Assembly (NCBI GenBank): GCA_004022145.1
Contig: RCNU01000002.1
DNA: 64,000 bases
Reading direction: 5' to 3' (one strand)
Source of the DNA: Paecilomyces variotii
Lineage: Eukaryota
Every line of letters starts with the position of its first letter. Position 1 is the first letter of the stretch. The notes beneath the pieces are model-generated. The model was not told where the DNA came from. It saw nothing but the letters and a program-made list of their open reading frames with translations, and did no database searches. Below are positions 1-8,053 of the stretch, in pieces. A program made the position numbers and the translations under genes.

Positions 1-3000
1 CTGAAAATGGAGTGTGATCCTATTATCGAATGTGGGAAGGAGGACTGTGCTGAGAAAGATGATATTGCCTTCCCTCAACTCCTCAAAGGAAGGGACAGTG
101 ATTCTCATCTGATCAACGGAAAGAAATCCATTCCAGACGATAATACCTGGCAAATCTGTGACATAACAGATCCTCTTTTGCAGAGCATTGTAGCCACGGG
201 ACAGCTCCGTTCCGAAGTCTCGTGGAAGGATGGATTCTTTTGGAATGGAACAATGGCTAAGCTTGAGGTCATTATGCGCGATAAGTTAATCTGTCTCAGA
301 GATGGTAACATCCCTCTCGATGATGAATACAGGTGCCTCCTAGGTTTTCCTGAGAGATATGAATCCTCACAACGCGATCATATCAGGTATGGCCTAGAGT
401 TTGGCCAGACCTATACTATGAAGCAAGCTTTTTTGAGAGGGAAGATATTACGCAGGGCACGCATATCTCTTTCCCGAGGATCGATGATGCAGACTCAGAA
501 CGGCTCCCAGAACAACACTCCTGCACTCGAAAAGCCGCTGACCGAAGACCAACTACAAACAATTGATAAAATAGGAAATAAACAGTCGGCTCAGCGCCTT
601 TATAAACGAACATTAAAGATATTTTCCAAGGAGGAGAGGTTGAATGCAATTGATTTTCTTCGAACACGGAAACACGTCAACCCCACAACTGGACAGGAGC
701 GACCCATTTCGATCTCAAGTGCATCTGAAGTCCTCTACATCGGCGAGGGTACATTGAAACGGTGGATAAAAGAGGAAGGAAAAATCGTAGAAATGCGGCA
801 GGGGTCGTCAAGAGCAGATGGGCCAAGGAAAGAACCCGTCAAGATAACAGACCAGTATGATTCAGGACATTATCCATTCCTCATGCTATCGCCAGAAGAA
901 CTGCACAGCTATGAAGTCATACAACGAAATGAGTTGCACAAGGTACTGCCTACGACGGGATTCCTCTTCTGAGATAATTTACAGATATTTACTTACTATG
1001 GAATAGCTACATCCTTTTGAACATCCAGTCCCTTTCATCGGGATAGAAGGAGGCCGATCTGGGCGACTGAAAACTTTCGAGGATGCTTATAAGTATCTCG
1101 GCCAACAGACCCAGACTTTCCACATTGGACATCCACTTGAACCCTCTGAACCCTCTACAAATAACAAGATGGAAAAGCCAGTACAACTTCCAGATCCTAA
1201 TTCCACAAGTTCCTACCTGAGAGACCCAAAGTCTCAGGGGATAATCAAGAAAATGACAGCACAAGAAGTTAACTCTTGGCTTTACAGCCTTTCGCCAAAG
1301 TATGAACCCAGAACACTTTGTTCAACAGAGCGAAATCCTTTCTATCATGAGTTGACGACGTGTGTTGCCTTTATATGTCAGCAGATGATGGCTGCAAATG
1401 ATAAGGTGAGCGATGATAATACATATCTCCGCTAGATACCGATGAAGTATGTTGATTGTCTGCATAGCTCAAGTCTGCACTTCCAGTCCGGGTCGAGTTT
1501 GGTTACGACCAACCTTTCCAAGGTGCCCCCCAACAATGGGCCATTAAACTTTTGTTCACCACTGACATAGAGATCCTGCTTCCATTGGCACTATGTCTAA
1601 AGGGTTCTGTTAAAGATGAAGTCGCTCCCGACTCCCTCTATCTTCAAGGCTGGACTATAGACCATGCCTTGTTGCCTTGCACAGGGCAGAAAAGGATAAG
1701 AAAAAGGGAGAAGTCAATCAAGTACATGCAACAATTTTACGAGAACTCACAGCCTATTTTTGACAAGTTCAGGTTGAGTCCAGTACTGTATATCACAGAT
1801 GTTGATATGCTGTTTCTTAGAACGCCGGGTTGGCGGCCGCGTCGGTTTTCTGCAAGGTGGACACTATACAGTACAATCCTCCACACCAGCTACCGATTCA
1901 AGTCTCCACTAAGCCCTGTGTATGGAACATATATGGATATTGGACTAATGGTTGATAAAGTCCTTGAAAAGGGATCACAAGTTTCTTTCATAGTCCCACC
2001 TAAGCACCCCTTCCAGCTCGTCAAACTGAGCCAATTTACACTCGACCATGGGACTTCTGAGAGTAATATCCTGTCAGACTCGCTCCACCAGTTTACTGCT
2101 GGTGATACTTCGTCTCATATCACTTTGCGATTCAAGGATATTGAAGATTACTTCTACCATGAAAGCGCAGTTCCTGACTCTGAAGGAATATACCGTGAAA
2201 GATTACACCATGCGCTTAAGTCGAGCGTGGAAAGAGGTTTCAATTTTGTGGACAACAAGAGAAAGTGCATGTTTTATACGTGCCCGGAGCCTCCATGGTC
2301 CTCAAGAACGTACTACTGTCGCTATCACTCTGGCGCACTCATCAGGCATTTCTTCGACCTCACTCCTTTATCTATTGACGTATCCACAACCGCACATTCG
2401 GAACTGGAATTATCGATCACAGACAGCACACGAACCACCTTGAAGGAACTCAAGACCATGTTCTTGAGGCCTGAGAATACTTGGATCATGGACTTTGAGT
2501 TTATTTCCATGCCGGTTAAGTACTCACCAATCCCACTACAACTTGCAATCAGACAGATAGATGGAAAGCTGCTGTATTCGGGTAATGTGGACTACAAATT
2601 GTCCATGAAGGACTTGGTCGAGATTACTTCACCGTATGTCTCAGACAAGCATGGTATGATGGGTACACTATTCCTGAGATGCTATGGAGGTCTCAAAACC
2701 AATGGTGAGACGCCTCCGAAGATCAGAGACCACCTTCGAGATGTTTGCGGCTACGACAAAGACAAAGTTCAGCTATTATCCTGGTTTTCTGCTCATGACA
2801 TGCAATGCTTTCTCAGAATCCTTTCGGGGAATGATGGCTTAATCCAAGACAAGATGTCTCATCTGAACGCATCAAATTTTCAATCGATCAATGTAGGTAA
2901 GCTATGCCGAGACCTCTTTCCAGGGCTCGCCTCGGGCAGACTTGGGACAGTGCATCAATATCTCGGGAAGAATACGGATTCATCCAGCGGAGAAGATTAC

Positions 3001-3066
3001 CATAACGCCTCGTACGATACTGCAGCGATGGTGGACATTATCAATGTTCTCGTGGGGTTGGTTTAA
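1..3066 (+). CDS. Uncharacterised ~980-aa (possibly 5'-truncated) protein with an HTH-like segment and a C-terminal DEDDh 3'-5' exonuclease-like domain; exons ~1-942, 1007-1405, 1468-3066
   Basis: ORFs 7..972, 1169..1435 and 1552..3066 join in frame through GT-AG introns 943-1006 and 1406-1467. Motifs: ISISSASEVLYIGEGTLKRWIK (HTH-like); WIMDFEF (ExoI), SAHDMQCF (ExoII-like), HNASYDT (ExoIII H-x4-D). Confidence 0.6.
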
Positions 3067-3522
3067 GTCCATTTTGGAATCCCTGGCACAGATCAGAAAG
3101 TCGACCTAGGAGAAATCACTAGATTGTTTCTTAGCCAGTTAATTGGAAATAGGGTCAGATGACAGAGTATGGGATAGGGGGGAATAAATACGTATTATGT
3201 TGTATTGGGTACATACATAGTAGCTGAATATTTTATTGAACAATATAGTTGTATTGAAAATAACCCTTCACTCAAAGTAGAATATATTTACACTCCCGAA
3301 AAGAGTATCATAACTAGCCCGAGAACAGGTGTTATACATACGGAGTACAACGCAAGCCTTTAAACGCCGGGAGGGTTAATAATAATATCTTACATTCAAC
3401 CAAGCGCACTCCGAAAGGAGTAGATCACGTTAGGTACATTAAAAAATCCGAATAGGCTGAGATGCCTACTACGAAGCACACTCTTCGCTTCACGGTCGAC
3501 TGGTGATCTGGCAAGATTAAAG

Positions 3523-3531
3523 AAAAAAAAA
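3523..3531 (-). terminator. Pol III oligo-T terminator (T9) just downstream of the tRNA
   Basis: A9 run on + strand starting 12 nt past the tRNA 3' end. Confidence 0.75.
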
Positions 3532-3542
3532 GATTTAAATGC

Positions 3543-3678
3543 CGACAGAACTGGGATTCGAACCCAGGCGGGCGAACCCACAGGCTTACTATTTGGGGTG
3601 TTAGTTGAAAGTCGGGCTACGGTGTCTTGTAAAGGCTACTTACGCAGGCCTGCACCTTAACCACTCGGTCATCCTGTC
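3543..3678 (-). tRNA. tRNA-Ser(GCU), 81 nt mature, with a 55-nt intron (3589-3643) inside the anticodon
   Basis: Minus strand: acceptor GACAGGA/TTCTGTC with G73, D arm ACC-GAGTGGTTAA-GGT, anticodon stem CAGGC/GCCTG, long variable arm GGG-TTCG-CCC, T arm CTGGG-TTCGAAT-CCCAG. Removing GTAAGT...CTAAC...TAG gives loop CT-GCT-AA. Confidence 0.9.
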
Positions 3679-4126
3679 AGATGATGACTATTTTTTCCCG
3701 AAATACGCTACTTCATCCAAACATACAGTGCCCCATGGCTATGACCTCTTAATTGATCAGTCTTTGGAGCACTGGATCTCCGGAGGTACAACGGCTTGCC
3801 TCAGCTTGGGTGTAGATACTGCCACTCAAGCGCAGGCTGAATGCTCACCTGTAAAACCAGGCCTTTCTTCTTTCTTCGCTTCTTTCTGCTGCAGGCAGCC
3901 AACATTAGCCGCGTGCGCTTTTTCTTGATGACGTCCCACTTGAAGCTCACTTCTACCTGAGCCTGAGCGATGCCCAGAGACTTCGACCTGTTCACGCATC
4001 TTCCCTTGTACGTTCGCAGCGAGCGCAGACACTTCTCAATAAGCGCCCCGCATCATTTAAGTACCAAAGCCCTCTTGCTAAGAGACTTGTGGCACTGACC
4101 GCGGGGCTAGTTTTCCGGCAGGTCAG

Positions 4127-7100
4127 ATGCTAAACAAGATACGGAGCGACGACGCTCAAGATGATGAGCGCAGGTTGTTCCCGAACTTCGAGTACGTAAT
4201 CCCACAAGCATTCCTGTCGTCTGTAGTGCTCACTCTTTTCTCGGATACAGCAGGAACAGTTCGAATGCGGTCACGATCATTCCTGGAGCTACATTCAGAA
4301 AACCCGGCAAATTAACGCACGTAAGCAAGATCGCGGCTCCCTCATGAAGACGGCATCTAACAGTATACATGGATTAGGGGCTATCTCCGTTTCGGCCCAT
4401 AGACACAATCGCGCGTCACTCCAGACAAAGTGGGCCAGTTCGTGCGGCGGGGAAGGGGAGGCAGCTGGATGATCGCAGCGTTACAATTCCTGGTTCTTCC
4501 CACCGCGGATACTCTGTGGAACTGGATGAGAATAATAGGCCGACAAAGCGCCAACGTCGAAGCCTGGAGGCGACATCGGGTCCGGTTGTCGATTTGATAG
4601 ACGTTGAAGATATGGAACATCAGACGTCTCCAACAGGGACGTCATCCTCGTTTCAGCACACGTCCCGTCTATCTTCGACATCTAGCCAGCAGTCCGTACG
4701 TCCAAAGAAATCGAAGGGGACAGGGAAGAAACTAGACGAGTATAGGAACGTGGAACGGTTAATGAGCGTTGGTCACGCACCGACCAGTCCTCAGAATTAT
4801 TTCCACAGAAGACAGGTGATTATTGAGGATGACAATGACGCTCCGCCTACACCAAAAAGGAAACCTGGAGACACGCGAGAAGGTGCCGATCGGACTGAGA
4901 CTGACAAAGTCAACCGTGACAACAAGCCGGAAATCCTCGACAGTGTCGAGATTTGCAATACAAGGAACCAAAAGGATGTGACCGAGCTGGAAAGTCCAAA
5001 GTCTCTAAAGAAATTCTTTTCGACAGACAGTAAGCGACGCGGATCAAGCGGACGAGAGAGCCCGGACGAACTACAGGGAGATATCACCGTGCAGCGTGCG
5101 CCTTCCTCGCTGAATGGAGTGCATGCGAGGGAAGCCAGTGTCGGTTCCTCATCAGCCGACCGATCGAAGAAAGATGCCTGTTGGCGATCATCTCCAAGCG
5201 ATATTCGTCCCGTGGAATTCACGTCCACCTCCGGAAAAGATCGAGGAAAGGCAAACCGGAAAGAGAGGTCAGACAAGGGTGCTTCTCACAAGAAATTGTT
5301 CGAAGCAGACTTGTTCCGTTTCGGCCCTGTCGAGCGTGTATCTTTCGAAGGACAGGGCTTTGAACTCACTATCAATAAGGCCCGAGACACTCTTTGCCTG
5401 GCGGAAACTGCTGACAAGGACAGCACGAAGGGGATTGATATACCGCTGCAGAAAATCACGACTGTCTTCGAAGGAGAAAGTCCAAGTCGTAAGATCCGTT
5501 TACGTCTTTCAAAAGTGGAGGGCAGCGATGAAATGGTAGATATACAACTATCTTCAGAGAAGGAAAAGGACAACTTCTGCAAGGTCCTGAAGCGGAAAGA
5601 TATCAAATTTTTATCAAAAGAAAGGTATGCGTTTGTAGTGGCTTCCCACGGACCTAAAACTAATGAATCTGCCAGTGGGTGGATGGACGCTGCATTCAAT
5701 AGGAATGAGAAAAGAACTGCTGCGCAGAAAGGTCGCTACAAGCGCCTCAACGACGCAGAGAACAGCGAGGAGCCTGTTCAAAAGTCGAAATCCGAAACGA
5801 TTAAACGGCCAAAACTTTCCGAATCTCTCCAAGATGACAGCGCCAACACCAACCGCTCTGCAGGGTCTATGATTAGTCGACCCCCGCGTCGTCTAGGCGA
5901 AGCTTCGAGTCATGCGCAGAGCCAAACTGAAGTCCCTGACCCGGACAGTCACAGCCATCCATCCAGAAGCGGATCTGATGAAGGAGTCGCAATCCCTGTC
6001 AAGAAATATATGGATAATTCCTTGTACGAACGAGAAACACGGTCCAAATCCCGGAAAACACAGCCTGCAGTCATTAGGTTCGCGAATCCATGGCCCCCAA
6101 GAAGAAAGCTCAAATGTCAGCTAACAATGACCCAGCGATGATAAGGAGCCAACAGTAGAGAAAGCAGTGTCCGCTTACAAGCCGCGAAAGTGGTCGAAAT
6201 CCCTTGTGTACCCTCGAGTGGGAAAGAAGAAGGCTGAAGTCGATGTACATGATCTAGAAAGACTCCGTGACGGAGAGTTTCTCAACGATAATCTCGTCGG
6301 TTTCTATCTGCGATTCCTTGAACATCACTTGGAACGTACAAGCCCTCAAACGGCGAAGAAGATCTATTTTTTCAACTCCTACTTCTTTGAGACACTTACC
6401 AATCTTCCGAGAAGCAAACGTGGGATTAACTATGAAGGCGTCCAAAAGTGGACGAGGAATGTCGATATCTTCAGTCATGACTATATCGTTGTTCCTATCA
6501 ATGAGAGCGCACATTGGTACGTGGCTATCATATGTAATCTGCCGATCTTGGAGCGCCCTCAAGAGGGTAGTCCCGAGCTCGAAGGATTTCCTGATAAAGA
6601 AGTCTCGGAGGAGCGTTCAGAAATCCCTGAGACTCCACCAGCTGTGGCGGAAGATAGTTCGGTCAACGACCCTAACGCTATCGGCAATGTGCACTCGGAT
6701 TCCGGTAAAGAAGAGAAGACCCGTCAATCACTCGCTTCAATGACACTTTCTGACAATAGAGAAGTCTCCTCGCCCACTGGGGAAAAGGTTCAGTCTGGGA
6801 CAGCACCGGAAGCTGACGATGATTGGCCGGAGGGAGAAGAGAACCCTACCTCGTCACCCCCGAAGTTCACAAAGCCTGGTGATTATCCTCGTGAGCCAGA
6901 ACCGAGCCAAGAACAGGAAGATGTGTCACGGAAGAAATCGCAAGCGGCCGATAAGGGAAAGAAGCAAAAGAAGAAACAAGGACGCTCTTTGCCGAAATAC
7001 GATCCCAAGCAACCGGTTATTATTACGTTCGATTCCCTGGACCTCCCGCGCTCGCCGACAGTAAGATGCCTCCGTGAGTATCTCTACGAGGAAGGGAAGT

Positions 7101-8053
7101 CTAAACGCGGAATCGACGTCGATGTGAAGGCGATCAAGGGGATGACGGCGCGAGAGATCCCACTGCAACCTAATTTCTCAGACTGTGGTCTATACCTACT
7201 GGCGTACATGGAAAAGTTCATCCAGGATCCAGATTCTTTTGTGACCAAACTTCTTCAGAGAGACATGAAAACGGAGACGGACTGGCCTTCGCTGAAATCC
7301 GGTCTCCTCCGCCGTCGCCTTCGCAAGTTCCTCGACGATCTGTATGAGGAGCAGGAGGAGGCACGGCGCCATAAGATGACCGAGACAACCACAATGGCTG
7401 ACAGGAAGCCAATTTCATATCTATTGGGGCCCAGTCAAGTCTCTAAGAAGATAAGGAGCGGTGACAAGCCTGCGCGGAAATCTGAAGAGCATGATGCATT
7501 ATGCTCTAAGGACCAGAGTCCCTCCAAAGATCTCCCTGGAAACAGAAGCAGCCCGGAGGAGCTAGTGCTAAGACAGTCGAATGGTGATTCGTCGCAGCAG
7601 GCTGCATCAAAGGACACCCTGAAGAAGGGAACGCCAGATGAGACAACTCCAAGACAGCCTGAGGTGGATGATACAACTGTATCAGGCCCAGTTGGCGAAG
7701 CTGCAGAGGACGCCGCAGCAATAGTGCAGCCTCCCGCTATGAATGACACGGCACTCGAAAGTACGACTTCGGACCGCGAAGTGATTGAAGTACTTGATAG
7801 TCAGTCACAACAAGTACCAGCTTCTCCACGCCATCTCCGTCATAGCAAGGGAAAGAGACAGTCAGGACCTCGACACGCAGAGGCAGCTGACGATGAAAAC
7901 TTCCTCGATGAACTGCAAGAGGTCGTAAATACGTCCCCAAAAGTTAGAGTTGAGGTGCAAGTTCCAGGGACACCACCCCTTGGCAGAGCAACGGCACTTG
8001 TGGAGGATAGCCCGCGGAGAAGTCCGCGACAGGCGAGACCAACGAGCAAGTGA
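4127..8053 (+). CDS. ulp2: Ulp1-family (Peptidase C48) SUMO protease, Ulp2/SENP6-7-like
   Basis: FLNDNLVGFY, YFFNSYFF, VPINESAHWY, ITFDSL and QPNFSDCGLY catalytic motifs with a split catalytic domain. In-frame introns ~4193-4250, 4321-4377, ~5624-5675 and ~6078-6134. Confidence 0.9.

Follow-up and report, generated by a model that had tools for sequence, protein, structure and literature searches.

The window, a 64-kb stretch of DNA analysed over its whole length, gave a single Rfam match, a tRNA gene at 3678–3543 on the minus strand (RF00005, 43.1 bits). One protein encoded in the window was 100% identical to a protein assigned to Paecilomyces variotii, those of other Eurotiomycetes reaching about 70–82%, and the host would accordingly be this mould or a very close relative. 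The gene body was of type II, with a long variable arm and the discriminator G73, in agreement with the serine body that the initial annotation had read here. The anticodon was split between bases 35 and 36 by a 55-nt insert, which began with GTAAGT, contained CTAAC, and closed with TAG. The donor matched the GTRAGT consensus of U2-type introns, and the CTRAY branch-point motif lay shortly upstream of a YAG acceptor. With the insert taken out at 35/36, the anticodon loop read CU-GCU-AA, which together with the long variable arm and G73 corresponded to tRNA-Ser(GCU). As a tRNA-Arg(GCG), the product would have a type II arm and U37 instead of a short variable loop and a purine at position 37. 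The features of the locus are listed in Table 1.

Table 1. Positions of the split tRNA-Ser gene, its insert and neighbouring elements in the window
Feature	Position	Strand	Remarks
tRNA-Ser exon 1	3644..3678	-	Positions 1-35: acceptor 5' strand, D arm with A box, anticodon stem 5' strand, C32 U33 G34 C35; identical in 3/3 copies
Spliceosomal-type intron, 55 nt, between 35 and 36	3589..3643	-	One contig of run X1 lacks precisely this segment
5' splice site GTAAGT	3638..3643	-	First 12/12 alignment columns the same in three copies
Branch-point motif CTAAC	3600..3604	-	Ends 11 nt before the intron end; kept in 3/3 copies
3' splice site TAG	3589..3591	-	Its G would also be the anticodon-intron partner of C32 in the 37/38 register
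Intron GCCT, possible decoy (weak)	3633..3636	-	Can pair with the anticodon stem 5' strand instead of exon 2; pairing probability 0.70-0.77
tRNA-Ser exon 2	3543..3588	-	U36 A37 A38, anticodon stem 3' strand, variable arm 3580-3568, T arm with B box 3564-3554, acceptor 3' strand, G73 at 3543
9-T run, Pol III terminator-like	3523..3531	-	11 nt past the discriminator; T runs also follow the other two copies
Spliced 402-nt contig of run X1	3294..3749	- (inferred from intron polarity)	Reaches past the tRNA by about 70 nt on its upstream and 250 nt on its downstream side

When a 55-nt deletion was slid along the anticodon loop, removal at 35/36 (ends GT..AG) gave CU-GCU-AA, removal at 36/37 (ends TA..GT) gave CU-GCG-AA, and removal at 37/38 (ends AA..TA) gave CU-GCG-UA. 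This bore out the earlier proposal that the splice register sets the anticodon. Among the registers slid along the loop, strong splice ends occurred at 35/36 only; a second 55-nt GT..AG register, missed by the initial annotation, was present at 39/40, with a weak donor (GTAGCC), a GCG anticodon, and a broken 31:39 pair. The pentamer GTAAG, which had been noted earlier at both junctions, was found again at the insert start (3643–3639) and across the 3' junction (3589–3585). Among the 121 Ser(GCU)-like matches listed (119 metagenome loci), 118 continued with TAA after GC; two of the remaining three continued with TAC or TAT, one was Cys-like, and none continued with GT. The repeat arises because the acceptor G is obligatory and Ser(GCU) loops usually end in TAA-G, and it was therefore rejected as a designed switch or a target-site duplication. 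Against a profile of 95 intronless homologues, the 35/36, 36/37, and 37/38 products scored 56.6, 52.3, and 47.7 bits, respectively; since the homologues had been collected with a pattern ending in GC, these scores show only that such tRNAs normally carry U36-A37-A38. Donor, branch point, and YAG acceptor occurred jointly in 2 of the 127,890 55-mers of the window (both strands), and one of the two was the insert itself, which indicated that its splice signals were more than chance.

Removal of the insert was observed in one RNA-like run. Four of 24 listed sequencing runs (X1, X2, X7, and X9) were compared with positions 1200–6600 of the window; run X1 was RNA-like, its nature being guessed from its record, and its contigs skipped all six neighbouring mRNA introns. 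One X1 contig (402 nt, depth 10.8) joined 3588 to 3644 and skipped exactly 3589–3643. The ends of the skipped segment were CT..AC on the plus strand, and the joint was unambiguous, with sides of 296 and 106 letters adding up to 402 and no letter between them. The exact GT..AG removal, seen in this one contig from one of the four runs, produced GC|UAA, the junction of Ser(GCU), which excludes a cut at 37/38 as its source: a canonical intron of the tRNA splicing endonuclease (TSEN) would have left U37 and GCG. Neither a GCG junction among the contigs of the four runs nor an intron-retaining contig among those listed for X1 was found, although contigs drop rare forms. Runs X2 and X9 had no coverage of the tRNA gene, and the coverage of X7 ended at 3729 and looked unspliced. 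The proposal that a GCG product exists found no support in the only RNA junction or in the Ser(GCU) identity of the orthologues described below. The initial annotation had also held that a single detected junction, with no TSEN cleavage, would make the alternative product irrelevant; one junction only was detected, in contigs, which drop rare variants.

The local mRNA introns were 51–68 nt long, and the insert resembled them in length and signals. In the three of the six RNA-verified neighbouring introns that carried a branch motif, it lay 10, 11, and 16 nt from the intron end, and the other three (1406–1467, 2705–2772, and 4192–4250) had no CTRAY, so that the signals of the insert were stronger than those of many local mRNA introns.

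The spliced contig ran through the T run at 3531–3523. The tRNA gene was arranged head to head, at a distance of about 120 nt, with a spliced gene on the plus strand, the contigs of which started near 3800; a downstream frame of this neighbour (6131–8053) matched Peptidase_C48 of the Ulp1 type. Backward firing of this neighbour's divergent promoter may have given rise to the spliced tRNA contig as a passenger transcript. Because the contig is far longer than a normal pre-tRNA, it is possibly not the real precursor of the tRNA. The contig shows that the splice signals work precisely, and not which polymerase makes the productive precursor.

The genome contained three copies of the tRNA-Ser(GCU) gene (two on contig C12 and one on C17), all of them with the insert. 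Their exons were identical, their flanks shared no alignment, and their inserts were 55, 57, and 55 nt long, each with the GTAAGT donor. In the alignment of the introns, identical columns numbered 12/12 at the 5' end, 16/26 in the middle, and 17/19 at the 3' end. Identical exons despite unrelated flanks and diverged introns indicated selection on the tRNA. Within the intron, the three copies did not vary over the first 12 bases, six beyond the need of the donor; this stretch contains GCCT, which repeats the anticodon stem 3' strand. With targeted patterns on the assembly of 86 contigs, no Ser tRNA with GCU or ACU was found besides the three copies, and three A-box/B-box sweeps of the genome gave no further Ser(GCU) or Arg(GCG) gene. 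The extra matches of the targeted patterns were non-Ser (one of four in one pattern and all eight in another). The tRNA census was partial: Rfam scored 63 of 977 candidates, and genes for Asp, Tyr, Gly(GCC), and Val(AAC) escaped the patterns. Codons AGC and AGT made up 65 of the 2593 codons in five reading frames of the window, which shows that a reader of AGY is needed. Ordinary Arg(ACG) genes were present in the genome. Every Ser tRNA gene found for AGC and AGU is split in the anticodon by an mRNA-type intron.

Six Ser(GCT) rows of the Aspergillus niger NRRL3 tRNA table (PMC6108506, S1 Table) showed the same anticodon stem, variable arm, and T stem, with only a 20–23-nt intron at 37/38, and a metagenome locus, L080, was similar. 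By these orthologues and L080, GCU is the family identity of this Ser tRNA. In this lineage, a spliceosomal-type intron at 35/36 appears to have taken the place of the canonical one. A metagenome scan for other species whose Ser(GCU) carries a GT donor at 35/36, from which near relatives were possibly left out, gave no matches.

Seven more tRNA genes of this genome carried such inserts, at three other positions. A Thr(UGU) gene (L060, contig C10, 58.7 kb) had a GTATGT..CTAAT..TAG insert at 32/33 and a 12-nt canonical intron at 37/38; it would need both splicing machines, with the anticodon held by a middle exon of 5 nt. Three His(GUG) genes (L065–L067, contig C12, 4049681, 4052623, and 4054608) had an insert with GTGAGT..CTAAC after A14 in the D loop, and the only register restoring the D loop ended in TG, not AG, giving an apparent GT-TG intron. 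The donor of these His genes also rebuilt most of the A box. Their uninterrupted orthologues were His3 and His5 of A. niger. Two patterns for D-loop introns gave no matches, the second being unable by construction to match the His genes. In two Ser(CGA) genes and a Ser(UGA) gene (L198–L200, contig C23, 366 kb, 372 kb, and 440 kb), the insert lay in the T stem immediately upstream of the B box and was accompanied by canonical introns; the AGA family alone was insert-free among the Ser genes found. The sole good U6 match of the genome (contig C12, 3968705–3968804) was uninterrupted, while at least 10 tRNA genes carried spliceosomal-type inserts. On contig C56 (L028, 1831–1929), a tRNA-like gene was seen whose anticodon is TCC and whose canonical intron is 27 nt long; its D arm resembled those of the Glu tRNAs of the genome.

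Such genes were poorly handled by gene finders. ARAGORN missed the gene in one run and called it Thr(AGT) when introns were allowed; the expectation that automated annotation would mislabel the locus was correct, but the predicted Arg(GCG) label was not the one given. That similar cases may be hidden in fungal annotation was supported by the A. niger S1 Table (PMC6108506), in which 17 of 284 rows had such inserts, all 17 being mislabelled; these rows were counted by eye and re-read from the sequence, without RNA. They were re-read as follows: five Trp(CCA) genes labelled Ala18, Ala19, and Pseudo (three rows); seven Asn(GUU) genes labelled Phe1, Phe4, Pseudo (two rows), and SeC1–3; two Pro(UGG) genes labelled Asp6 and Phe3; and three Arg(UCU) genes labelled Ala2, Ala3, and Ala6. 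The rows named tRNA-SeC1–3 appear to be Asn(GUU) genes with D-loop GT-AG inserts. In the three Arg(UCU) genes, a GC..AG insert lay in the anticodon at 34/35 and the canonical register read TGC, so that Ala2, Ala3, and Ala6 would be the register-shift scenario realised as an annotation error. Inserts were present in 5/6 Trp genes, 3/3 selenocysteine rows, and 5/6 pseudogene rows, and Asn(GUU), Arg(UCU), and Pro(UGG) were represented in the table by interrupted rows only; a GCG row was absent. Rows Asn1–3 of the table were not tRNA-like in appearance.

From these results, we consider it highly probable that the locus is a functional tRNA-Ser(GCU) gene with an ordinary U2-type spliceosomal intron inside its anticodon at 35/36. 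The spliceosome would be the catalyst, and the mature tRNA-Ser(GCU) pool would be made through intron removal at this position. We propose that the nuclear spliceosome cuts the precursor at GTAAGT and TAG with CTAAC as the branch point, and that splicing would restore the loop CU-GCU-AA, the usual end trimming then yielding a reader of AGC and AGU. TSEN would be avoided mainly by order, with nuclear splicing taking place before export to a cytoplasmic TSEN, a location assumed for this mould; misfolding brought about by the intron, together with decay of whatever U37 product is formed, would perhaps give further help. The cytoplasmic location of TSEN is known for budding and fission yeast. In available passages on yeast, the enzyme resides on mitochondria and acts after nuclear export (PMC10275265), from which nuclear splicing should come first in this mould as well.

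The precursor is probably made by Pol III, the A box, B box, and T runs being intact in all three copies; yet the spliced contig extends beyond the gene on both sides (Table 1). A longer precursor, perhaps made by Pol II, may tentatively be considered, since splicing was seen only in a molecule of at least 402 nt that continues past the T run; it is conceivable, though we would not expect it, that these Ser tRNAs mature from long, capped precursors of the Pol II type. The motifs AATAAA (3237) and TATGTA (3340 and 3219) downstream on the minus strand were rejected as evidence for Pol II, since they are too frequent in AT-rich DNA.

The initial annotation had argued that the cell must either avoid TSEN cleavage here or tolerate a mistranslating product. 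This concern was structurally fair, but no GCG junction appeared among the contigs of the four runs. The genome had two genes for the catalytic subunits of the tRNA endonuclease (two matches to PF01974). According to the available passages of a review, TSEN needs only the mature fold, from which the distance places the 5' cut, and for the 3' cut the anticodon-intron (A-I) pair between base 32 and the third-last intron base (PMC8479045). In the 37/38 register, the acceptor G stood at -3 and could, by sequence, pair with C32, the next pairs being U33:A and G34:U. Position 35/36 was the only loop position that put the acceptor G at -3, and a 32/-3 pair was present in 19 of the 25 automatically parsed canonical introns of the genome (one mis-parsed row dropped). 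The TSEN route is therefore geometrically possible, and nothing points to its use.

A precursor escaping the spliceosome could in that case be cut by TSEN at 37/38 and ligated to a Ser-charged GCG tRNA, which would place Ser at CGC and CGU codons at a meaningful level. We regard such a two-pathway outcome as very unlikely. Anticodon-changed Ser tRNAs do mis-insert Ser in yeast, and those with the Arg anticodons CCU and CCG and with A37 can be toxic; the available passages on this toxicity concern A37 tRNAs and never name GCG (PMC6125640). The product here would have U37, unlike all 121 homologous metagenome matches listed, and yeast TSEN, as noted, acts on mitochondria after export. The probability of the A-I pair calculated by RNAfold was ≤0.001 in 3/3 copies, with or without enforced arms, a value for these copies alone and hence weak evidence against TSEN cleavage. 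RNAfold favoured a hairpin between the anticodon stem 5' strand and the intron GCCT (Table 1; other arms enforced). We rejected this decoy hairpin as a device for avoiding TSEN: all three copies showed it, but they are close relatives, and the native stem was likewise lost in 37% of 150 shuffled introns. A literature search gave nothing relevant on Arg(GCG) in fungi. We likewise give little credence to a competition of spliceosome and TSEN for one precursor, in which the winner would set the anticodon and escape, for example under heat or splicing stress, would lead to conditional Arg-to-Ser mistranslation.

Slightly less credible still is the explanation that tRNA-Ser(GCU) comes from an insert-free gene that escaped the search, while the three genes do not work as AGY readers and lose their insert in an incidental long transcript alone. 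The sole spliced RNA was indeed long and passed the T run, and the census was partial in an assembly of 86 contigs. Against this explanation, the exons were kept identical in three copies despite unrelated flanks and diverged introns, the targeted patterns found no other copy, and other isotypes showed the same pattern, both in this genome and in A. niger, whose interrupted Asn(GUU), Arg(UCU), and Pro(UGG) rows had no intact counterpart in the table.

The least probable of the three is non-spliceosomal removal at 35/36, by a relaxed endonuclease acting on a bulge-helix-bulge, as for non-canonical archaeal or red-algal tRNA introns, or by self-splicing. Archaeal tRNA introns do occur at non-canonical positions with a bulge-helix-bulge motif, as described in available passages (10.1101/614032). 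In the present gene, however, donor, branch point, and acceptor were conserved rather than a helix linking the junctions, the predicted folds had no pairing between the 35/36 junctions and thus no bulge-helix-bulge, and the inserts at other tRNA positions had the same signals. A group I or group II intron is dismissed, 55 nt being far too short for either.

With a U2-type intron in the anticodon, the decoding of AGC and AGU appears to depend on the spliceosome, which would tie translation capacity to mRNA-splicing activity. It also raises the question of how U1 and U2 recognise a tRNA precursor. The genes may serve as tiny, essential reporters, in a Pol III context, for intron gain in non-coding RNA, and tRNA counts and codon-adaptation analyses of moulds may be skewed by mislabelled genes.

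Reviews and tool papers, in the passages available, describe the introns of eukaryotic nuclear tRNAs as confined to position 37/38, removed by TSEN, and limited to one in each gene, and treat the intron types as unrelated (among them PMC8479045 and 10.1101/614032). The open-access literature searched yielded no description of a tRNA gene with a spliceosomal intron, subscription journals being mostly outside its coverage. The introns at 37/38 are alike in lying in the anticodon loop and, in sequence, in the possible A-I pair C32:G(-3), and the A. niger orthologue has such an intron (PMC8479045 and PMC10275265, in part). The present insert differs in its position at 35/36, in its conserved GT, branch point, and AG, and in an RNA junction that a 37/38 cut could not produce. 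The non-canonical introns of archaeal tRNAs, as described in part of 10.1101/614032, are similar in lying off 37/38, in occupying several positions per genome, and in defeating gene finders, and they differ in that the inserts here have spliceosomal signals without bulge-helix-bulge pairing. Engineered mistranslating tRNA-Ser variants resemble the hypothetical GCG form, since a Ser body is charged whatever its anticodon and a GCG product would mis-insert Ser (PMC6125640, in available passages). The GCG form here would, in contrast, arise by mis-splicing and carry U37, and it was not observed. The tRNA of the CUG-Ser clade is another mistranslating anticodon variant of tRNA-Ser.

The closest known system is found in other non-coding RNA genes of fungi: U6, which is transcribed by Pol III, as well as U1, U2, U5, and rRNA genes can contain spliceosomal introns, as far as the available part of PMC5855946 covers them. 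The U6 intron of Schizosaccharomyces pombe is a precedent for splicing of the transcript of a Pol III gene, and it shares with the tRNA inserts a short length, a canonical 5' splice site, a branch site, a 3' splice site, and a non-coding host (PMC5855946, available part). Lineage-specific gains of snRNA and rRNA introns at many positions, described in the same part of that review, are a further likeness. No tRNA host is listed in that part (PMC5855946), and the U6 gene of the present genome is uninterrupted. In contrast to U6, the host here is a tRNA, which has a dedicated splicing system of its own, and the junction sets its coding identity. The insert works like the U6 intron: it has the three marks by which a U2-type intron can be tested, namely the consensus donor, the branch point upstream of a YAG acceptor, and exact GT..AG removal in RNA, and it lies away from the position of TSEN introns.
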